64,000 nt of DNA from Escherichia phage ECP2303: sequence record PP261279.1; one strand, 5' to 3'. The position numbers were made by a program, and so were the translations under genes. Under the pieces are notes generated by a model, which did not search any database, was not told the origin of the DNA, and was given only the letters and a program-made list of their open reading frames with translations. Positions 21,473 through 62,141 of the stretch are shown here, piece by piece. The first letter of the stretch is position 1. Each line of letters starts with the position of its first letter.

Positions 21473-22483
21473 TTAGCCACCGTTTTTCAGAGTTACTTTA
21501 ACAACCAACTCTGGACGGGTGTTAACTGCCAGCATGGAAGTTTCAGATTCAATCTTCTCTTCACGCAGGTATGCAGAGTGTTTGTACCACATATACAGTT
21601 CCTGTGCTGGAGTGTTTGCTTCGTTAACATCATCTGCCGGAGCAAAGTGCAGCTGGAACATCTGATCAATACCCATCGGCAGAATGCGAGCTTCTTTCTT
21701 AGGAATATTGCCAGAGATATCTTCGATAAAGGTGATACCTTTATGTTCAAACACACGGTATACGCTGTCTTGACCGCCAGCACCAAGACGGCGACGCAGA
21801 GGTTCCTGAGCAGAGCCGTAATAGGTGTATGCCAGTTCTACCAGCGGGTGATGGGTAATAGCACTGAAGAACTCTGGTGAGCACAGAGCTACAATACGAT
21901 AGCCAGCTGCGTTATCACCAGCTTGCAGTGCGATGTGCAGACGAGCTTCTTCCAGAACCTCCATAGGATCCTGATCTGCTTTTGCAGGGTCAATCTCAAC
22001 AGATTTCTGTTCAACACCCCACAGAGTGTAGTAGTCATACTGACAGGTGGTGTCACCAGGTGCATAGGATTTACCCAGAATAGCCTGGAACAGCGCTTTC
22101 TCACGCAGTGCTTCATGAGAAACACGGATACGGCGAACAACGCGGGTTACTACGTCCTGAACAGTTTTCGGAGCATCAGGGGTGAAGTAACGACGGAAGT
22201 TCTGAACATCTGCGGCAGTGATGCCTTTGTCCAGAGGGAAGAACGGGATGTTCAGGTTTTTAACCTGGGCACGTTCACTACCAACGTAGTTACGCTCACC
22301 ACCACGACGGCGTGCCGGAATGTCGGTTACAACTTCATCAACACGCTCGATCTGAGCAATCGTTGAGGTGCCGAGACGGGTTTCGAACAGATCCATACCA
22401 GTAATCAGTCGGAATTGGCGCGGAACAAGTTCCAGAGTAGCACCTAAATCAACAATGCCAAATTCATCTTTACGAGTAATCAT
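21473..22483 (-). CDS. major capsid protein (lambda gpE-like family)
   Basis: 336 aa, size and sequence pattern similar to lambda gpE; preceded by decoration and scaffold genes and followed by a strong terminator. Confidence 0.75.
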   Translation of the reverse strand: MITRKDEFGIVDLGATLELVPRQFRLITGMDLFETRLGTSTIAQIERVDEVVTDIPARRRGGERNYVGSERAQVKNLNIPFFPLDKGITAADVQNFRRYFTPDAPKTVQDVVTRVVRRIRVSHEALREKALFQAILGKSYAPGDTTCQYDYYTLWGVEQKSVEIDPAKADQDPMEVLEEARLHIALQAGDNAAGYRIVALCSPEFFSAITHHPLVELAYTYYGSAQEPLRRRLGAGGQDSVYRVFEHKGITFIEDISGNIPKKEARILPMGIDQMFQLHFAPADDVNEANTPAQELYMWYKHSAYLREEKIESETSMLAVNTRPELVVKVTLKNGG

Positions 22484-22530: not shown

Positions 22531-22920
22531 TTACTCATCACCAAGGGTCTGGACTTGAACCTTGTTACCAAGGGCCTCAAGCTTGTCTAACACAGCCTGT
22601 GCTGCTTTAGCGCCACCAGTTGCCAGCAATTTATCCTTGGCAAAAGTAACACCACGTACAGCAACAACCAGTTTATATTTCTTTGTGCCAAGAGGTTCAG
22701 CGATATGCACTTTACCAGCAGAGTCTGGAATTAAAGCACGATCCACCAGAACGCCGTAAGCGTCTGAACCGTCCTGATTGGCAATGCTACCATCTTTGGT
22801 CACAACCGTGCCAGCGTGGTGATGCTCTGTCAGTGTAATTTCCATCTCTTTAAAATTGTAGCCAGCATCGCTAGAATCAACTTTGCCGAGCACGATATCA
22901 GAATATTGAGCGGTAATCAT
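22531..22920 (-). CDS. head decoration protein (lambda gpD-like)
   Basis: 129 aa directly upstream of the capsid gene; size and Gly/Ala-rich pattern fit gpD-type decoration proteins. Confidence 0.65.
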   Translation of the reverse strand: MITAQYSDIVLGKVDSSDAGYNFKEMEITLTEHHHAGTVVTKDGSIANQDGSDAYGVLVDRALIPDSAGKVHIAEPLGTKKYKLVVAVRGVTFAKDKLLATGGAKAAQAVLDKLEALGNKVQVQTLGDE

Positions 22921-22940: not shown

Positions 22941-23918
22941 TTATTTGGTAGATTCTGCACGTGCACGAGCAAGTGCTTTTGCAACGTTTTCAGCAAGAAT
23001 TTCTTCTGCGGATTTTGCAATATCATCCACAACAGGTTCGCCATCATTACCATGTTCAGTGGTGGCAAACTCTTCTTTGGTTTTATGCACCTCTGCTTCC
23101 AGCTCTTTAATTTTGGCTTGAGCTTTCTCCAGCATAGCTACGATAGGTTCGTTAGCTTTTTCCAGCATGAAGTCAACCAGGGTTGCATGATCTTCTTCAC
23201 CAACAAAGCTTAAAGCTTGAGCTTTAGCCAGCATTTTAGCTTTTTCAACTTCAACCTGGGCCTTGATGATTTCTTCAGCTTTACTCTGGGTTGCTTTCAG
23301 CTCTTCTACTTGCTTCAGCAGATCCAGATACTCTTTAGTTTTGGTTACGTCCACCGGATTCTCCTCGGTATTTGCGGATTTTGCAACATCATCCACCTCG
23401 GTAGTTTTATCCACCTCAGTAGGTTCCTGTACCGCCTTGATCAGGTTCCCTTCTTTATCGAAGAGATCAGCGGTTACTTGTTCAAAAATCTGTTGTGTTT
23501 TTAACAGGCTGTACTGATCTACCACACTAAGCTGCTTGCCTTCTTTTGCAGCTTTATGAATGGTCACGTTATCACAACGCTCTTCCAGCCATGCAATGCA
23601 AGACTCTGCGTCAGCTTGCGCCCATTCCCAATCAGGATGCTCTTTAGCCCAAGCTTCCTCTTCAATCTCAAAACCAAGCATGTGTGCGAGTGCTTTGGCA
23701 TCGTCATACCACATATCGAAGAAACGACGCAGGTATTCTTCAAAACTCAGCTCCACAGTAACTTGGCGAAGTGCCTTAACAATATCGTCTGTTAACTGCT
23801 CAGGCTGAAGATCACTCTTCATCAAAAGAGATACAGGTCTGTTGTTAGCGCTATAGCCTTGAGCCTTATGGCACAGGGCAATCCCCTTCTCTTTAATAGT
23901 GATTGTTTTTTCAGACAT
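22941..23918 (-). CDS. scaffolding protein
   Basis: 325 aa, highly acidic and helical (long KAEE/EVEKAK coiled coil) between protease and decoration genes. Confidence 0.6.
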   Translation of the reverse strand: MSEKTITIKEKGIALCHKAQGYSANNRPVSLLMKSDLQPEQLTDDIVKALRQVTVELSFEEYLRRFFDMWYDDAKALAHMLGFEIEEEAWAKEHPDWEWAQADAESCIAWLEERCDNVTIHKAAKEGKQLSVVDQYSLLKTQQIFEQVTADLFDKEGNLIKAVQEPTEVDKTTEVDDVAKSANTEENPVDVTKTKEYLDLLKQVEELKATQSKAEEIIKAQVEVEKAKMLAKAQALSFVGEEDHATLVDFMLEKANEPIVAMLEKAQAKIKELEAEVHKTKEEFATTEHGNDGEPVVDDIAKSAEEILAENVAKALARARAESTK

Positions 23919-24337
23919 TATTCATTGCCCTCTTCTACAACACTGATCCCGAAATTTACGTTGGTAATTTCGCCCGTCTCTTCATCAACATTGCCTGTTG
24001 CCTGAATGCTTAGGCCACCAACAATGCCAGCCTTCTTAGCTTCCCATAATTCAGGATTATTGTATTTAACTTTAGCAACCCAAGAGCCAGCCTTGATGAC
24101 CTGCTCAGTACCAATTACTACAACATCAAACTCTTCTTGAATCCACGTCTTTTCAATAGTGAAAGCATCTGTAGAGGTCAAGTGGAAAAGGTTTTCAGAA
24201 ACTAGGCCTGCGGCGTATGCTGCGTCCCAATTATCTTTAGCCTTTTTGATGGTGTCTTTACTCATCCACTCACCGTGAGCGTCTTTAGTGTCCGGTTCGT
24301 AGATGATTTCGTAGGAAATCATTTCTTCCTGTGGCAT
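23918..24337 (-). CDS. prohead protease (XkdF-like, putative)
   Basis: YEIIYEPDTKDAHGEWMSKDTIKKAKDNW matches the XkdF-type phage protease core; longest ORF extends to 24493 but overlaps the portal gene by 89 nt, so start assigned to the in-frame ATG at 24337. Confidence 0.45.
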   Translation of the reverse strand: MPQEEMISYEIIYEPDTKDAHGEWMSKDTIKKAKDNWDAAYAAGLVSENLFHLTSTDAFTIEKTWIQEEFDVVVIGTEQVIKAGSWVAKVKYNNPELWEAKKAGIVGGLSIQATGNVDEETGEITNVNFGISVVEEGNE

Positions 24338-24404: not shown

Positions 24405-25961
24405 TTAATTTTCCATGTTGGATATGGAATTATCTCTGGTTGATGACATCTTAGAAGTGCCGTTGCCAGTGGATCCTGCAGCCATACCATCACCAGCCCT
24501 GCTGATATCCTGGCCCAAAAGCTTCATCAGCTCTTCTTGATCCATGTCTTCGTCAAATCTTTCATCAAACCCGCCTACTTCAAGAATCTTATTAATTACT
24601 GTAGGAGTTTTTGGCAAGTAACCTACAGCACCGATCCTCTGGACAAACTTGGAGAAGCTCTCCATGTCCACTTCTTCAATCAGACCAGGTTTCAGTTTAG
24701 GCATATCATCATCTTCAAGGATGATACCATTCAATGCCAGAAGCTGTGGAATAAGATCTTTATTGAAGGCCTCAGTGATAATATCTATATCACGCTGAAC
24801 AAAATGCCCATGGATGGATTGTTTTGACTCAGACAGAGAGAAGGACCCAACGTTATCGTTACCAAGGTTAATAAAGCCAGCACCGAAACGGTCAAGAATC
24901 GCCTTCTTACGGGCATCAATCAAATCTTTAGTGGAATACTGCTTACCCATACCATCAACCCCCTTCAGGGTCATGGAGTAAAGCTCTTTACCAGACTTAT
25001 CTCTATCAGACGGAAGTATAAAGAAACTTTGCTCCCCACTATGGGCGTTTGCTGCGTCCAACATAAGATCTGCAACCATTCTCCCTTCCATCGAATTCGG
25101 GTCAATGCTGGCCTTGTTCAAAATATTGGAAGGAATTTTCAGCTCAAGCACACCACCAAGGTCTTTGGAGCAGCCAACAACCTCAAGGTTTTCAATCAAA
25201 ACTTTCTCACGGAAAGATCTGTAGCAACCTATCATCGGTGACACACCTGCAGGATTAGATTCTGTTCCTGACAGAGTCATGAGCATAAGCTTTTTAGCAG
25301 GGATGAAAATTTCAGGCTCATTAAAGCCTTTTGAAGGCATTGCAGCAAGAGGACCAGCCCAGCGTGCATTCTGCGTGTTTAGAAATGCATTAGGTGATTG
25401 ATAAATACCTGTCAGTGTTCTACTATTCTTGTCAAAGACAAACGGCTCTGATCTGGACAAACTGGCCTGTGGTCGGAACGCAATCTTATCAATAAGAAGC
25501 ATCCCGGCGTATTTACCTTCTTTCTCTCTGCGGTATACTTTCTCAAACAGTGAAAAACCATACTCGTTAAAGGTAGCTGCGCTTCTTGCAATATCTCGAA
25601 GAGTTTGTTGGTTTGCCAAATTACGCAAAGAATACTCTACAAGCTCGGCAGCTTTCTTAGAGTCTTCACTTTTAACATTATAAAGTATCTTAAAATCATT
25701 AAATGCTTTCGTGATGAAAACATATTTTGTATCTAAGGCAGTAGCAACTGTGGAATCACATTTCATAGTTTCCACTGTAGCAATCAGCTGAGGCCAACGC
25801 AATTCCTCAACCATCATAGATTGTGATTCTGCCATAATTTGGGAAAGTGCGCCAGAACCGATCTCACTCATACGAACATTATGAGTTGGTGCGCCTGCGT
25901 TCCCAGATTTATTCACAGTTTTGGCTGTGGCGTTGTGTTTCCTGCGGTTCTTTTTGGACAC
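24405..25961 (-). CDS. portal protein
   Basis: 518 aa directly downstream of the terminase large subunit, basic N-terminus and acidic C-terminus; the call is positional. Confidence 0.7.
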   Translation of the reverse strand: MSKKNRRKHNATAKTVNKSGNAGAPTHNVRMSEIGSGALSQIMAESQSMMVEELRWPQLIATVETMKCDSTVATALDTKYVFITKAFNDFKILYNVKSEDSKKAAELVEYSLRNLANQQTLRDIARSAATFNEYGFSLFEKVYRREKEGKYAGMLLIDKIAFRPQASLSRSEPFVFDKNSRTLTGIYQSPNAFLNTQNARWAGPLAAMPSKGFNEPEIFIPAKKLMLMTLSGTESNPAGVSPMIGCYRSFREKVLIENLEVVGCSKDLGGVLELKIPSNILNKASIDPNSMEGRMVADLMLDAANAHSGEQSFFILPSDRDKSGKELYSMTLKGVDGMGKQYSTKDLIDARKKAILDRFGAGFINLGNDNVGSFSLSESKQSIHGHFVQRDIDIITEAFNKDLIPQLLALNGIILEDDDMPKLKPGLIEEVDMESFSKFVQRIGAVGYLPKTPTVINKILEVGGFDERFDEDMDQEELMKLLGQDISRAGDGMAAGSTGNGTSKMSSTRDNSISNMEN

Positions 25962-26063: not shown

Positions 26064-27611
26064 TTAGATAAAACGCTTGAACATAGAAGGTGATGAGATT
26101 GATGGAATCACACAAGGCAGCGCTACCTCCTCTTTCTCTAGGAAATTAATCGCAGAAGCTACACAGTCGGCCCAGTCGTCTTTTCTGTTAAATGTTGATC
26201 TTTCCCCGTTGAACTTTTCAAGTTCAGTCAGAAATGCTTCCAGAGTGTCAGGATGGAAACTGGATTTTACAATCCTCACCATTCCTTGTTGGGCAAGATT
26301 GGCAAAAGGTGAGAACCTTGTCAGTTTAGATTTGTTGGAAGGCATTGGATCTTCTTCAACCCTGAACCCTTCGGCGAGCAAGGATCTGGATGAGGTTAAG
26401 AACTCACTCTTACCTGCCTGGCCGGGGTCCACAGAAAATACGATTATGCAATCATCTCCATCAAACTGTGCCTGTTTCCTGATGATCACATCTCGTTCCC
26501 CAGCCTTTTTACAGAACTTGCCTTCCAGACCTGTGGAATACCTACCGTCATCCACGTTCTCAGGACAATAATCTCCGGACAGGTAATAAAAGCCGTCGCT
26601 ATCTTTACTTACCTTAACACTGGCGGTAAAGTCAGGAAATTTATTACCGGAAGTTCTCTCGGTCCCTGCCTTATCCCATGCCCTGCAAGATACTGATCCA
26701 AGAGGTACTCTATCGGCATCCCGAAGGAAAGATCTTTGGAAATAGTTTGCACCCTCAGGTTTGGCAAACCAGTTGCCATGAAGAAGCTGGGCTTTTTCAA
26801 GCTCTGGCAGACCTTCAAGGAAAGCAAGGTATTCTGGGTTGTCTCTCAAGCAGACAGGATTATCGAAAATTGTTGCGCCTATAAACGAGAATGACAACGG
26901 TCTTGGCTTGATCTCCACACCCAGTCCGTTAACCGTGGTGTATTTCTCTATTAACTCTTCTTTAGAGTCTCCCCAAATAAATTCACCGTCGCGTCGGATA
27001 AAATATCTTTTCTTACCACATTTCTCCGGATCTGGATACCCTTCATCGTCCAACCACCACCTAACCAGTTTGGCAAGCATGTGTTCTGAGTCGGGGTTAC
27101 AGCTGATAACCATTCTTGATGGATACTTTGACTGAGATCGCAGACGAGACATCAAATAGTCTATCTGCTCCCATTCGAATTGCGTGCCTTCATCGAAGCA
27201 AACCATGGTGTACTCAAGGCCTTGATGGTTAAGCTTATCTTGGACATACTCCATGTGGCAGTATTTTACAACGGCCCCCTTTTTGCTCCTATCCCACTTG
27301 CCAGTGCTCGGATCAAACCGTGGAAAAATAAACTTATGATCCTTCTCTCTGAACTTTGGTTTAATGTTTTCAGGCAGATCACTGTAAATAGCTACTGCTT
27401 TAGGCCATAGCCCACCCTCACCTTCCAACTGGGGAGTTGTTCTTCGGAACATAACCACAGAGCTGTGCGGGTCATCAATAATTTTAAGCGGCATTAGCTG
27501 CAAGAGGAACGACTTGCCAGACCCAGCTGCACCTCCGATCACCAAAATATCTGCATCGTTCTCTAGGATCATCTTCTGCTTTTCAGAACACGGTCCGTAA
27601 ATCTTAGACAT
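26064..27611 (-). CDS. terminase large subunit
   Basis: Walker A GGAAGSGKS, Walker B-like VCFDEG, C-terminal nuclease-domain acidic motifs (SVDPGQ); 515 aa. Confidence 0.85.
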   Translation of the reverse strand: MSKIYGPCSEKQKMILENDADILVIGGAAGSGKSFLLQLMPLKIIDDPHSSVVMFRRTTPQLEGEGGLWPKAVAIYSDLPENIKPKFREKDHKFIFPRFDPSTGKWDRSKKGAVVKYCHMEYVQDKLNHQGLEYTMVCFDEGTQFEWEQIDYLMSRLRSQSKYPSRMVISCNPDSEHMLAKLVRWWLDDEGYPDPEKCGKKRYFIRRDGEFIWGDSKEELIEKYTTVNGLGVEIKPRPLSFSFIGATIFDNPVCLRDNPEYLAFLEGLPELEKAQLLHGNWFAKPEGANYFQRSFLRDADRVPLGSVSCRAWDKAGTERTSGNKFPDFTASVKVSKDSDGFYYLSGDYCPENVDDGRYSTGLEGKFCKKAGERDVIIRKQAQFDGDDCIIVFSVDPGQAGKSEFLTSSRSLLAEGFRVEEDPMPSNKSKLTRFSPFANLAQQGMVRIVKSSFHPDTLEAFLTELEKFNGERSTFNRKDDWADCVASAINFLEKEEVALPCVIPSISSPSMFKRFI

Positions 27612-56360: not shown

Positions 56361-57149
56361 ATGGGTCGAGCTAAAGAAACAAAACGCATGCGTGATGAAG
56401 CTAGAGAGGCTCGCAAATCTGATCGCCTGCGTAAGGCTGCTGAGAAATTTGCTGACGAAAGAGAGCACACCGCTCCAGCTCTCCGACCAATGAATAAGAA
56501 GCAGCAAAAGTATCTTGATTATCTAGGGTCACGTAAGATTATTATTGTAAACGGTGTGTTTGGATCCGGTAAGACATTTATGGCATCTGCATATGCAGGT
56601 GATCTTCTGCGTAAGAACGAGATTGATAAGATCATTGTTGCACGTCCTTACGTCCAGACAGGAAAGACTTCAGGATTTAAACCTGGAAATGCAATGCAGA
56701 AACTGTGGCCCTATCTTAGAAGCATGATGGACACGATTTGTCGTCGTGTTGGCAAAGGTGCTTTTGCAGCAATGCTTGGGGACGGTCAGAACAGCCGTAT
56801 CGAGATTTGTGAGGTTGAAAGCATTCGTGGTCGTAGTTTTGATGAACGATGCTTTGTCCTTATTGATGAAGCACAGCAAACTAACCCTGAAGAAATGTTG
56901 TCAATTATCACAAGGATCTCTGATCAGGCCACCCTTGTAATTATGGGTGATAATAGCCAACGTGACATCCCTGGTAAATCTGGCCTTGCATGGGTGACAG
57001 ATTTCTTTACTCGCCATCCAGATCCTGATGTTGGAATGATTAGCTTTGATAGTCCAGACGATGTCGTTCGTTCCGGGTTAGGCCGTCAGATTGCACTCAA
57101 TCTTATTGAGGATCGTGCAAATCATATTTGGACTCCTGTTTCCGAGTAA
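56361..57149 (+). CDS. phoH: PhoH-like ATPase
   Basis: Walker A GVFGSGKTF and PhoH-type core; 262 aa. Confidence 0.85.
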   Translation: MGRAKETKRMRDEAREARKSDRLRKAAEKFADEREHTAPALRPMNKKQQKYLDYLGSRKIIIVNGVFGSGKTFMASAYAGDLLRKNEIDKIIVARPYVQTGKTSGFKPGNAMQKLWPYLRSMMDTICRRVGKGAFAAMLGDGQNSRIEICEVESIRGRSFDERCFVLIDEAQQTNPEEMLSIITRISDQATLVIMGDNSQRDIPGKSGLAWVTDFFTRHPDPDVGMISFDSPDDVVRSGLGRQIALNLIEDRANHIWTPVSE

Positions 57150-57155
57150 TACAGA

Positions 57156-57178
57156 AGGGTGGTTATTCCACCCTTAAA
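57156..57178 (+). terminator. Rho-independent terminator (weak U-tract)
   Basis: AGGGTGG-uuauu-CCACCCT followed by TAAATATCT. Confidence 0.45.
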
Positions 57179-57193
57179 TATCTAAAACAGTTG

Positions 57194-57222
57194 TTGACAA
57201 ACAGGTGAGCTTTAGATATTAT
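57194..57222 (+). promoter_or_regulatory. sigma70-type promoter
   Basis: TTGACA, 17-nt spacer, TATTAT. Confidence 0.5.
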
Positions 57223-57252
57223 TATTGGACAAAACAAGGAGAAGGGCACAGT

Positions 57253-57564
57253 ATGGCTACAATACAAGAGAGACTGAATAAAATATACTGCCTGTTTGTG
57301 CATAACGGCGAGACAATTTTGGCAAATAAGGGATTCAAGAATGTGTGGACCAAGGACAGTGGTGGTAATATAATCAACCTAGCGTTGCTACGTGAGCGCC
57401 GACACAGATTCTTTATCGAGTCTCGGATTATTGAAAGCAGCACCTGCTACAGAACAGGCGATAAAGTAATTGTTGACAATGATACGTGGTATGTGGTAGA
57501 CTGGCAATCATTGAGCTGTGATGCTTCTGACAATCGTAAGTATTCTATAGTGATTGCTAAATAA
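57253..57564 (+). CDS. hypothetical protein
   Basis: Start at ATG 57253 (AAGGAG RBS); the track start 57205 lies inside the promoter spacer. Confidence 0.4.
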   Translation: MATIQERLNKIYCLFVHNGETILANKGFKNVWTKDSGGNIINLALLRERRHRFFIESRIIESSTCYRTGDKVIVDNDTWYVVDWQSLSCDASDNRKYSIVIAK

Positions 57565-57624
57565 AGGTAAATGTGAATCAGGTTTAAATAAATAGCTTTC
57601 AACTTCCAATATTAAGGATTTCTC

Positions 57625-58674
57625 ATGAATTTAACACCTCGCAGCACCATGGTACACGGCATGAAAGAAAAACAGAACGGTTTCGAACCTATGAGTAATA
57701 AAATGTTCGGTATGCCGGGTGGTATTATGGAGACATACAGCTACCCAACACCTGTTGTTGACCACGTTCTTTATATCGACGATTTGGAAGACCTGCAGGA
57801 TCATATGTCTCGCCTGCAGACGATCCGTATGGCTCAGCCTGAAGAAAGCATTCGAGTGATCATTAACAGCCCTGGTGGTTGCGTGCACATTGCGATGGCT
57901 TATCTGCAGGCATTCCGCGAGTCTCAGGCAAGCGTTGTTGCACATGCGGAAGGGATGTGCTGCTCTGCGGGAACAATCTTATGGCTGGGTTGCAAAGAAC
58001 GTACTGTGGCTCCGGACACAGAATTTATGTTCCACTACTATCAAGGTGGCACTTATGGTAACGGTGTGAACATGAATACTCAGGTCAGCTACTGGAAAAA
58101 GCGTTTCGAACGCCTGATCGAAAAATACTACGGTTGGGTGCTGACAGAAGATGAGATCGCATCCATCACAGCTGGTGGTGAAGTGTGGTTGGACGGAGAG
58201 GAGCTGGCAGCTCGAACTGGAGCTATCATTCTGGATGAAGGTAACATACAACGCATCCAGAACGGACAAAAACCGAAAAAGCTTCTGGCAAAAGGTGATG
58301 AAGAAGGTGTGTTAGGTGAAGCAGGTCTCCCGGAGATTCACCAGTGTACCTCTTTAGATGAGTTAGTTCATGCTGTTGAATCTGCAAAAGCTGGTGGTTC
58401 GAAAGGTGATGTTCACACTGTGTTCCTGAACCTGCAGATGGAAAGTGGTGAGACCGTTAAGATTGCCTTAGGTGAGATTACCTCAGAAGATCTGCAGCGA
58501 TTCTCTGTCGTTGAACTTCAAGACATTTTGTCCCAATTGAAGACAACCCTAAACGGCGGTGAAGAGGTTAAGGTAAAAGATAAGACTCGCAAGCGTCTGG
58601 TGGACAATATTATTAAAACAGCAAAAGAGCTCAATGAAAAAATCCTGGGTGCAGGAATTGTCGAAGAAGCTTAA
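57625..58674 (+). CDS. ClpP-like serine protease with C-terminal extension
   Basis: INSPGG and MCCSAG active-site regions as in ClpP; ~150-aa charged helical C-terminal tail; 349 aa. Confidence 0.7.
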   Translation: MNLTPRSTMVHGMKEKQNGFEPMSNKMFGMPGGIMETYSYPTPVVDHVLYIDDLEDLQDHMSRLQTIRMAQPEESIRVIINSPGGCVHIAMAYLQAFRESQASVVAHAEGMCCSAGTILWLGCKERTVAPDTEFMFHYYQGGTYGNGVNMNTQVSYWKKRFERLIEKYYGWVLTEDEIASITAGGEVWLDGEELAARTGAIILDEGNIQRIQNGQKPKKLLAKGDEEGVLGEAGLPEIHQCTSLDELVHAVESAKAGGSKGDVHTVFLNLQMESGETVKIALGEITSEDLQRFSVVELQDILSQLKTTLNGGEEVKVKDKTRKRLVDNIIKTAKELNEKILGAGIVEEA

Positions 58675-58686
58675 ACATTAATTCTA

Positions 58687-58708
58687 AAGCCCTCTTCGGA
58701 GGGCTTTT
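58687..58708 (+). terminator. Rho-independent terminator
   Basis: AAGCCCUC-uucg-GAGGGCUU followed by TTAT. Confidence 0.65.
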
Positions 58709-58725
58709 ATGATCTGGAGATTTGC

Positions 58726-59259
58726 ATGACTTGTGCTCGAAAACCTGATGAACAACGTAACGCCTACGATGAGTATGTGACACCGGAGTGGTGTGCAGAA
58801 GGGCTGTATGACCTTATTCCGTTCCCAGAAGACTGGACCTACTTAGAGCCTTGCAGGAATAGTGCCTCAGGTGTGTTCTACTCCCGTATGCCGTTAGGAT
58901 CTGCATGGGGAGAAATCCAAGAAGGTGTTGACTATCTGAATACAGAATACAACCATGTTGACTGTATTATCACCAACCCACCATACAGTTTGGCTCGTGA
59001 GTTTGTAGACAAGGCGTTGAAAGATGCTGACGTAGTTATTATGCTTTTGCGTCTTAATTTTCTGGAAAGCAAAGCCAGATTTGAATGGTGGCTTGATAAT
59101 GCACCTACCACTGTGATCACAATATCTAAGCGTCCATCTTTTCAATCAAATGGCAGAACTGACGGGCAAGCATATGCATATTTTGTGTGGGATAAGAAAA
59201 ACCGTTTAGGCTTGCCGCCGTTTATGTGGTTGGCACCCCCAGAGGTAGACCTGAAATGA
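58726..59259 (+). CDS. phage Dam-type DNA N6-adenine methyltransferase (small)
   Basis: CIITNPPYSLA (NPPY catalytic motif) in a 177-aa protein. Confidence 0.7.
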   Translation: MTCARKPDEQRNAYDEYVTPEWCAEGLYDLIPFPEDWTYLEPCRNSASGVFYSRMPLGSAWGEIQEGVDYLNTEYNHVDCIITNPPYSLAREFVDKALKDADVVIMLLRLNFLESKARFEWWLDNAPTTVITISKRPSFQSNGRTDGQAYAYFVWDKKNRLGLPPFMWLAPPEVDLK

Positions 59260-59540
59260 AAATGAGTGCTAAGGACAAATTACACCAGCTAGCGCTAAAA
59301 CGCCCTGTAACGCTCCCTGACGAGCTTAACTCCATTTATGATGCGATTGTAGGGGAGATACAAAATAAAGCGTTAGCAGGCTTTCTGGGGTGCGGATTTT
59401 CGATAAATCTACCCTCGCATCTCTCAGATTACTTCCCGCACATTGTTGGAGATTTAAGGGCAGGAGGTCTGCAGGTAGATGTTGTTGGCATCTCCCCAGA
59501 GAAAAATAATACGGTTGCCTACTTGACAGTAACCTGGTAG
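59256..59540 (+). CDS. hypothetical protein
   Basis: Start at ATG overlapping the upstream stop (ATGA); 94 aa. Confidence 0.35.
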   Translation: MKMSAKDKLHQLALKRPVTLPDELNSIYDAIVGEIQNKALAGFLGCGFSINLPSHLSDYFPHIVGDLRAGGLQVDVVGISPEKNNTVAYLTVTW

Positions 59541-61674: not shown

Positions 61675-62141
61675 CGATGTTTGTTAAATATGTAAAAACG
61701 TGCCTCAACAGTCTTGGCAGAGAGCATTGGTACACCTTGCTTGAAAAAGGGGAAATTTTAACAAAATCTGGAAAGATAACTTTGATACCTCTTGATAGTA
61801 AAGGTAAAGACCCGTCACGACTTGTTATAGATGATTACGTTACAGGTGTGACGTTCGAGGTCTCTGTGGAGAGGTTAATACGCAGAGCTGGCGGCCCTTA
61901 TGACCGAAGAGAGTATGTTTTCGATTCCGTTACAGAGATGGGGGAGCATCCGTCTTTAATGTTCAGGATGGTAATCAGAGATATGAGGTCATCTATAGAT
62001 AGGATCGTAAAGGACATTAAGGAACCTTTTAGAGTAAAAGTTAAGAAGTTTTTCGATTCTAAGATTAACATACTCGCCGTTGCACTAGGTGTAGTTCAAC
62101 TTCTGTTAATTTTGCACTATTTTGAACTACTATTTAAGTAG
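61671..62141 (+). CDS. hypothetical protein with C-terminal transmembrane anchor
   Basis: 156 aa, hydrophobic C-terminus (ILAVALGVVQLLLILHYF). Confidence 0.4.
   Translation: MTMFVKYVKTCLNSLGREHWYTLLEKGEILTKSGKITLIPLDSKGKDPSRLVIDDYVTGVTFEVSVERLIRRAGGPYDRREYVFDSVTEMGEHPSLMFRMVIRDMRSSIDRIVKDIKEPFRVKVKKFFDSKINILAVALGVVQLLLILHYFELLFK

Follow-up and report, generated by a model that had tools for sequence, protein, structure and literature searches.

A ClpP-fold peptidase gene among replication and metabolism genes

The stretch of DNA analysed here, hereafter the window, comprises 64,000 nucleotides (nt) from Escherichia phage ECP2303 (PP261279.1), and our subject within it is the gene of a ClpP-like peptidase, the homologue of gp122 of phage rV5, which we refer to by that name. 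The DNA around this gene shows 100% identity to that of Escherichia phage ECP2309 and matches about 100 further Vequintavirus (rV5-like) genomes at 95-99% identity, marking the window as Vequintavirus DNA, and the ECP2309 annotation was used as the reference across the whole window. Tail and head genes occupy the minus-strand half of the window, replication and nucleotide-metabolism genes the plus-strand half. The peptidase gene is preceded by ribonucleotide reductase genes and PhoH and followed by a DNA methyltransferase gene, and thus lies in the metabolic block to which an initial annotation, made from the letters alone, had assigned it. An AAGGA sits 7 nt 5' of its ATG, and the encoded protein is 100% identical to ECP2309 WXX18415.1 ('ATP-dependent protease'). 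The presence of the gene is not new: it has been known and catalogued since 2013, when rV5 gene 122 was named "ClpP (ATP-dependent) protease subunit" in the genome paper (PMC3606486), and a ClpP annotation is found in >100 rV5-like genomes. The gene and the parts of its product, with lengths in amino acids (aa) and model confidence as predicted local distance difference test (pLDDT) scores, are as follows:

57625-58674, plus strand: ClpP-like peptidase gene (rV5 gp122 homologue), 349 aa; open reading frame (ORF) list, phrog_5410, PF00574, ECP2309 WXX18415.1
57625-57759, plus strand: N-terminal region, aa 1-45, predicted disordered, with motifs FG[MFY]xG and YSYP; pLDDT ~30, alignment
57760-58224, plus strand: ClpP-fold catalytic domain, aa 46-200; Foldseek and PDB profile matches
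57964-57966, 58033-58035 and 58180-58182, plus strand: codons of Ser114, His137 and Glu186, respectively; codons checked
58225-58410, plus strand: linker, aa 201-262, with the conserved motif LLDExNIKRxQxGQxP in a short helix (aa 201-222) and then a variable part of low confidence (aa 223-262); alignment, pLDDT
58411-58671, plus strand: orphan C-terminal domain, aa 263-349, a beta-hairpin and two long helices; model pLDDT ~75-88

Several searches place the catalytic domain in the ClpP fold. The Pfam model CLP_protease (PF00574) matched residues 59-168 with 47.6 bits (E 2.3e-12), passing the gathering threshold of 20.2, and the phage families phrog_5410 (E 7.7e-155, residues 24-345) and phrog_1827 (E 1.3e-39) were recovered as well. 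A PDB search with a profile of 20 homologues returned ClpP chains only (E 4e-13). Similarly, Foldseek retrieved ClpP structures at target-normalised template modelling (TM) scores of 0.63-0.72, and the AlphaFold model, which like all structure predictions used here is a monomer model, gave a target-normalised TM-score of 0.70 against E. coli ClpP over ~170 columns, at a sequence identity of ~19-22%. The E. coli ClpP sequence in our family alignment is identical to PDB 1tyf_A.

The active-site motifs that the initial annotation had read in this ORF are indeed there, INSPGG at residues 80-85 and MCCSAG at residues 111-116. Ser114 and His137 are invariant in 20 of 20 close and 11 of 11 distant homologues and align with S97 and H122 of ClpP. 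At the third triad position (Asp171 in ClpP) this protein has Glu186, with Asp or Glu in six distant homologues, whereas most of its relatives within Vequintavirinae, and Barbavirus, have Gln. The protein shares with cellular ClpP (MEROPS S14; E. coli, PDB 1TYF) the alpha/beta fold, a Ser in G-x-x-x-S-A-G, the His, the NSPGG oxyanion motif and a Gly-rich segment before the handle helix, and differs from it by the Glu at the position of Asp171, a largely exchanged hydrophobic unfoldase-docking pocket, the loss of 5 residues from helix B, an N-terminal region of unrelated sequence and a C-terminal extension of 150 aa.

Inhibition of host proteases, for example Lon, is known from phages, and a protein with the ClpP fold might in principle join host ClpP in one assembly; we considered that gp122 might be a decoy, irrelevant as a catalyst, that enters mixed rings with host ClpP and thereby shields phage proteins from ClpXP. 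We judge this extremely unlikely: Ser114, His137, the GG of the oxyanion hole and the flanking motifs do not vary even between distant lineages, a sign that catalysis is under selection, and an identity of only ~19-22% to E. coli ClpP also speaks against a decoy.

A second possibility is the role implied by the existing annotation, in which gp122 would serve as an alternative proteolytic core on host ClpX or ClpA and steer ATP-dependent proteolysis to substrates chosen by the phage. The clear ClpP fold, the Ser-His pair, the Gly-rich handle motif and the annotation itself, repeated in more than 100 genomes, are consistent with it. By contrast, the clpP equivalog model TIGR00493 gave 33.2 bits and did not reach its cut-off of 308.6. 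The docking pocket of E. coli ClpP for ClpX, ClpA and acyldepsipeptides (ADEP), which receives the IGF/IGL loops, we take to consist of Y60, Y62, F82, I90, M92, F112, L114 and L189. In the peptidase these positions are occupied by R77, I79, E99, H107, E109, T127, A129 and an Ile, that is, six of the eight are exchanged for charged, polar or small residues, and R77, E99, H107 and E109 are invariant within the subfamily. Moreover, the deletion in helix B removes the segment of ClpP L48/F49, and aa 1-45 do not align with the axial-loop and helix A segment of ClpP, the axial-loop region being unconserved; within this N-terminal region F28, G29, Y40 and P41 show no or almost no variation among close homologues. 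The C-terminus of ClpP emerges beside the docking pocket on the apical face, and by this topology the 150-aa extension would therefore fill the place of the unfoldase. Judged from these alignments, the hydrophobic ClpX/ClpA pocket is mostly lost in gp122, and we classify the protein as a predicted ClpP-fold peptidase and not as a ClpP equivalog. Docking to host ClpX or ClpA thus appears unlikely, the annotation 'ATP-dependent protease subunit' is doubtful because most docking residues are charged or polar in gp122, and the features examined do not support it; the label "ATP-dependent Clp protease proteolytic subunit" likewise deserves caution.

The part of gp122 beyond the ClpP fold, which the initial annotation had taken for a charged helical tail of ~150 aa, has that length (~150 residues) and a moderate excess of charge (30% charged residues versus 22% in the core), yet it is not predicted to be a plain helical rod. 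The predicted elements are a helix at 205-212, a linker at 223-240, a helix at 244-257, a beta-hairpin at 267-281 and helices at 295-309 and 322-342, the last three forming a small alpha/beta domain. In the linker region L203, N207, I208 and G214 are invariant, and pLDDT drops below 50 at 223-240 and 258-262. The domain of aa 263-349 is confined to proteins of the Vequintavirinae type. A Pfam scan of 18 family members found no significant C-terminal domain (HeH/LEM appeared in one member, at E 0.083), a BFVD search with the domain gave no match beyond one family member, and hhalign against the C-terminus of the ICP1 homologue detected no relation (E 0.17).

The head module and capsid maturation

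The initial annotation had noted an XkdF-like protease between portal and scaffold and had asked if gp122 is nevertheless the actual prohead protease in a fusion with the scaffold, displaced from the head genes. The protease and its neighbours are where it had placed them, and the head module, including the terminase gene, reads:

26064-27611, minus strand: large terminase; annotation
24405-25961, minus strand: portal (Portal_Mu)
23918-24337, minus strand: XkdF-type (Peptidase_S78_2) protease, 139 aa, likely the true prohead protease; PF14550 E 8.7e-18, phrog_3017 'head maturation protease' E 6.9e-14
22941-23918, minus strand: scaffold candidate (rV5 gp62), 325 aa, acidic (33% charged, net charge -27), between the protease gene and the decoration and major capsid genes
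22531-22920, minus strand: decoration protein
21473-22483, minus strand: major capsid protein, lambda-E-type

The peptidase gene lies ~33 kb from this module on the opposite strand. The XkdF or HK97-type prohead protease (PF14550), the other protease of the genome, belongs to a fold family unrelated to gp122 and probably does the job considered for gp122. Its top PHROG match is phrog_1530 (E 1.7e-51), a family labelled 'DNA methyltransferase' of which it covers only positions 244-373 of 379; either this profile is based on a fusion protein or its label is wrong.

Published proteomes bear on the question from the side of the virion. For rV5, 19 proteins were listed at permissive filters (gp61, 60, 64, 53, 52, 133, 79, 152, 82, 34, 237, 41, 62, 235, 106, 37, 1, 27 and 228, the gp64 entry coming from the text of the paper), and gp122 is missing among them even at permissive thresholds, in a dataset of mature virions that is small and noisy. 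Mass spectrometry of virions of the related phage CB7 (PMC7344957) identified 26 proteins, including CB7_5, a protease at the same head-module position as the XkdF-type gene of the window, and the neighbouring 40-kDa CB7_6. No ClpP-like protein is among these 26, a weaker negative since the CB7 homologue of gp122 is unconfirmed. The scaffold candidate of the rV5 gp62 type was seen at low level in both rV5 and CB7 virions. Virion proteomics, proposed as a check in the initial annotation, thus does not place gp122 in the particle as far as these mature-virion data go. The other proposed check was N-terminal sequencing of the mature capsid protein for its cleavage site. Published peptides of the rV5 capsid protein already start at residue 5 or 6 (R.KDEFGIVDLGATLDLVPR; N-terminus MITRKDEFG...), and therefore the N-terminus is kept and no N-terminal delta domain is cleaved off; such sequencing would accordingly show no cleavage site, whichever protease acts.

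Profile comparisons separate gp122 from ClpP-type head proteases. Like the head maturation proteases of NF045542, gp122 is a phage-encoded ClpP-fold serine peptidase; unlike them, it is not encoded between portal and major capsid genes and reaches only half the cut-off score of this ClpP-related model (60.3 bits versus 120). Genuine ClpP-type head proteases (e.g. at the sampled loci L024 and L026) are found in the gene order TerL-portal-protease-major capsid protein, and they match our family profile at E ~1e-11 to 1e-12, versus 1e-42 or better for the non-structural group. The C-terminal domain, for its part, resembles neither the scaffold-like protein of the phage itself (hhalign, E 0.29) nor viral scaffold models, the best scaffold match in BFVD having E 0.45 and a probability of 0.05.

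A protease of the ClpP clan with a non-catalytic C-terminal part is known from lambda gpC/Nu3 (S49, same clan), where the gene is part of the head module and the scaffold is Nu3. On this model, gp122 would enter procapsids by way of its C-terminal domain, digest the scaffold and leave. Such a role would fit with the frequency of ClpP-clan folds among phage head proteases, with matches to PHROG head-maturation families at 1e-21 to 1e-14 and NF045542 as the top NCBIfam match, with the charged helix-loop-helix end of the protein (some coat-binding domains of scaffolds are also helix-loop-helix shaped) and with a one-mismatch copy of a late-promoter core at 57363-57372, inside the gene upstream (see below). 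Unlike the lambda case, however, this genome has one gene for a scaffold-like protein and another for a protease, in canonical head order, proteins at the corresponding CB7 positions are seen in virions, gp122 is off the rV5 virion list, and its C-terminal domain resembles no scaffold. T4-like and T5-like phage types carry prohead proteases of their own, and close relatives of gp122 occur in genera of both types; the unprocessed capsid N-terminus is a further point against it. We therefore regard the displaced prohead protease-scaffold fusion as very unlikely. The evidence says that gp122 is not the enzyme of capsid maturation, a role that probably belongs to the XkdF-type protease.

On a related note, the label 'virion structural protein' on the window gene at 61677-62141 (plus strand; rV5 gp133) stems from the rV5 proteome, in which the evidence for gp133 is a pair of weak peptides, both non-tryptic (XCorr 2.5 and 1.9); for a gene amid early-type small ORFs, this label looks unreliable.

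Transcription and the linkage to PhoH

Upstream and downstream of the peptidase gene we find the following features:

56361-57149, plus strand: PhoH-like ATPase gene; PF02562 E 3.6e-47
57194-57222, plus strand: sigma-70-type promoter P121, TTGACA-17-TATTAT; promoter scan 11 of 12 matches, rV5 Table S4
57253-57564, plus strand: small upstream ORF, rV5 gene 121, 103 aa, phrog_5456 (function unassigned); ECP2309 annotation
57473-57502, plus strand: second promoter-like site inside gene 121, TTGACA-18-TGgTAGACT; promoter scan 10 of 12 matches and an upstream TG
58686-58711, plus strand: intrinsic terminator t122, a 9-bp stem with a UUCG loop followed by UUUUAU; folding, rV5 Table S4, ARNold in phage Gotham

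Table S4 of the rV5 paper predicts both P121 ahead of gene 121 and t122 after gene 122. The t122 hairpin (58686-58707) folds at -14.7 kcal/mol, with a z-score of -2.8; it was missed by a simple terminator scan and recovered by reading and folding the sequence. Of the promoter and terminator that the initial annotation had credited to the peptidase gene, the terminator thus stands, and the promoter does so in part, the strong site preceding gene 121 and not the peptidase gene itself. Gene 121 is probably co-transcribed with the peptidase gene, and none of the other phage genera examined has a homologue of gene 121 beside its peptidase gene. The site at 57473-57502 is 120 nt 5' of the peptidase start, and its core TGTGGTAGA resembles the rV5 late promoter P055; it could yield a second, differently timed peptidase transcript. 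Just past the PhoH stop, between PhoH and P121, an 8-bp GC-containing hairpin (AAGGGTGG ttatt CCACCCTT; 57155-57177, plus strand) with no T-run after it might act as a weak terminator or as a site of RNA processing that parts the PhoH unit from that of genes 121 and 122.

Of TGGTAAAATA, the core of late promoters in rV5, the window has three exact copies, all on the minus strand in the structural module, and one copy with a single mismatch at 57363-57372, inside gene 121. Judged by promoter type and neighbourhood, expression of the peptidase gene is likely early or middle. The homologue could not be assigned to a temporal class from the transcriptome papers and supplements of PAK_P3 and PAK_P4.

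We then compared the gene contexts of peptidase relatives, which tblastn detects in 1086 phage records, drawing on annotated phage records and metagenomic contigs for a sample of eight metagenomic proteins and twelve lineages of cultured phages. A PhoH gene lies upstream of the peptidase gene on the same strand, separated from it by 0-3 small ORFs, in about half of the lineages sampled. Within Vequintavirinae this holds for the window, Mydovirus (Proteus phage Mydo) and Certrevirus, and elsewhere for ICP1, two Otagovirus genomes, Barbavirus and a Barba-like metagenomic contig. In Otagovirus phiPsa267 there is an overlap of 8 nt between PhoH and the peptidase gene; the two are 2 nt apart in an unclassified metagenomic lineage and 1 nt apart in a Zobellviridae podovirus, where the pair sits between thymidylate synthase and ribonucleotide reductase. 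PhoH and ClpP-like genes are also consecutive (CDS-146 and CDS-147) in the genome paper of Alteromonas phage V22. Barbavirus and Vequintavirinae share, in addition, a methyltransferase gene downstream of the peptidase gene. No such linkage is seen in Pakpunavirus, Kassivere, Schizotequatrovirus, Sugarlandvirus, Matsuvirus and three metagenomic lineages. It is far above chance placement, and the independent events behind it are few, since several linked myovirus groups may share ancestry.

This linkage raises the possibility that the peptidase and the upstream PhoH-like P-loop ATPase form a phage-specific ATPase-peptidase pair or act in one pathway, for example in the turnover of RNA-protein complexes. 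Same-strand adjacency in several phage groups, down to gaps of 1-2 nt and an overlap of 8 nt, would fit such a pair. The five named groups and three metagenomic lineages that lack the linkage do not, however, nor are the linked cases independent of one another; relatives of PhoH are RNA-linked ATPases and helicases (NF053827 match) and not known unfoldases, and our literature search found no paper discussing a pairing of PhoH with a Clp protease. We consider a functional pair of this kind quite improbable.

A non-structural peptidase family and its proposed role

Placement away from structural genes, among those for replication and nucleotide metabolism, is shared by the window and 12 other cultured-phage loci. 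The homologue lies between frd and uvsX in the T4-like Schizotequatrovirus and in a non-structural position in the T5-like Sugarlandvirus, and further non-structural homologues are found in ICP1, Otagovirus, Barbavirus and Zobellviridae. The phrog_1827 proteins (ICP1 ORF211 and those of Schizotequatrovirus, Pakpunavirus, Otagovirus, Barbavirus and Sugarlandvirus) resemble gp122 in the catalytic core (25-36% identity), in location and in their frequent linkage to PhoH, and differ from it in length (182-326 aa) and in having no C-terminal extension or an unrelated one.

Two side observations came from the same surveys. First, on a metagenomic contig (locus L025) a ClpP-like gene of 204 aa is flanked on one side by a beta-CASP/metallo-beta-lactamase RNase-type gene and on the other by a YonJ-like gene, near a protein with a PF05183 (RdRP) match, a non-structural context in quite a different phage. 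Second, 121 records match window positions 57000-59300, nearly all of them at least 90% identical, and 19 GenBank records matching this interval are titled 'Campylobacter phage' (17 with Campylobacter jejuni as host), which suggests mislabelled hosts or contaminating coliphages.

With a probability of about 70%, we favour the reading that gp122 is a non-structural accessory ClpP-fold serine peptidase, the Vequintavirinae branch of phrog_1827/phrog_5410, that would act independently of an unfoldase in a host-directed or early-phage task and leave the capsid to the XkdF-type enzyme. The non-structural role that the initial annotation had offered as its alternative is upheld as a category only, with gene neighbourhood, promoter type and the wider family all fitting it. 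As to its narrower suggestion, that gp122 might degrade host or defence proteins, PADLOC gave no defence-related match for the peptidase or gene 121, and a literature search (rV5, phage-encoded ClpP, ICP1 Clp) found no functional study of the peptidase. We envisage that host RNA polymerase makes gp122 early or in mid-infection, and that the protein assembles into ClpP-like rings that would work without host unfoldases. Seven C-terminal domains might then ring the entry pore, as a built-in gate or as a cap that recruits substrates. While the phage takes over the cell, the likely task would be limited proteolysis, be it of host proteins or of early phage proteins, or else the turnover of peptides, with capsid maturation falling to the XkdF-type protease of the head module.

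Several points weigh against this reading. The pocket residues compared above are a list from the ClpP literature and not the output of a tool. Early or middle expression is judged from promoter type and gene neighbourhood, and our literature search found no study of expression timing for rV5-like phages. Prohead proteases often leave the capsid, and because of this absence from mature virions is weak evidence, all the more in a small and noisy rV5 dataset and with the CB7 homologue unconfirmed. Among curated NCBIfam models NF045542 matches best, with 60 bits versus 39 bits for cellular ClpP, and gp122 may therefore have its evolutionary origin in a head protease. Finally, the models of the C-terminal part are moderately confident, with mean pLDDT of 69-74.

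On the non-structural reading, the puzzle of two proteases in one phage resolves in an ordinary way, with the XkdF-type enzyme for the head and gp122 in a separate non-structural family. What retains interest are the lost docking pocket, the orphan domain and the linkage to PhoH. A bolder proposal, and a long shot, is that virulent phages of several families deploy, before assembly, a phage-specific machine of PhoH and peptidase, or a self-capped, unfoldase-independent ring whose C-terminal domain selects the targets, and so reshape the host proteome or eliminate defence proteins; if true, this would give a function to the phage 'ClpP' as well as to phage PhoH, a widespread protein whose role has long been a mystery. 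In either case, many virulent phages carry a conserved ClpP-fold peptidase that is apparently active by sequence, and its substrates could reveal proteolysis that serves host takeover or counter-defence.

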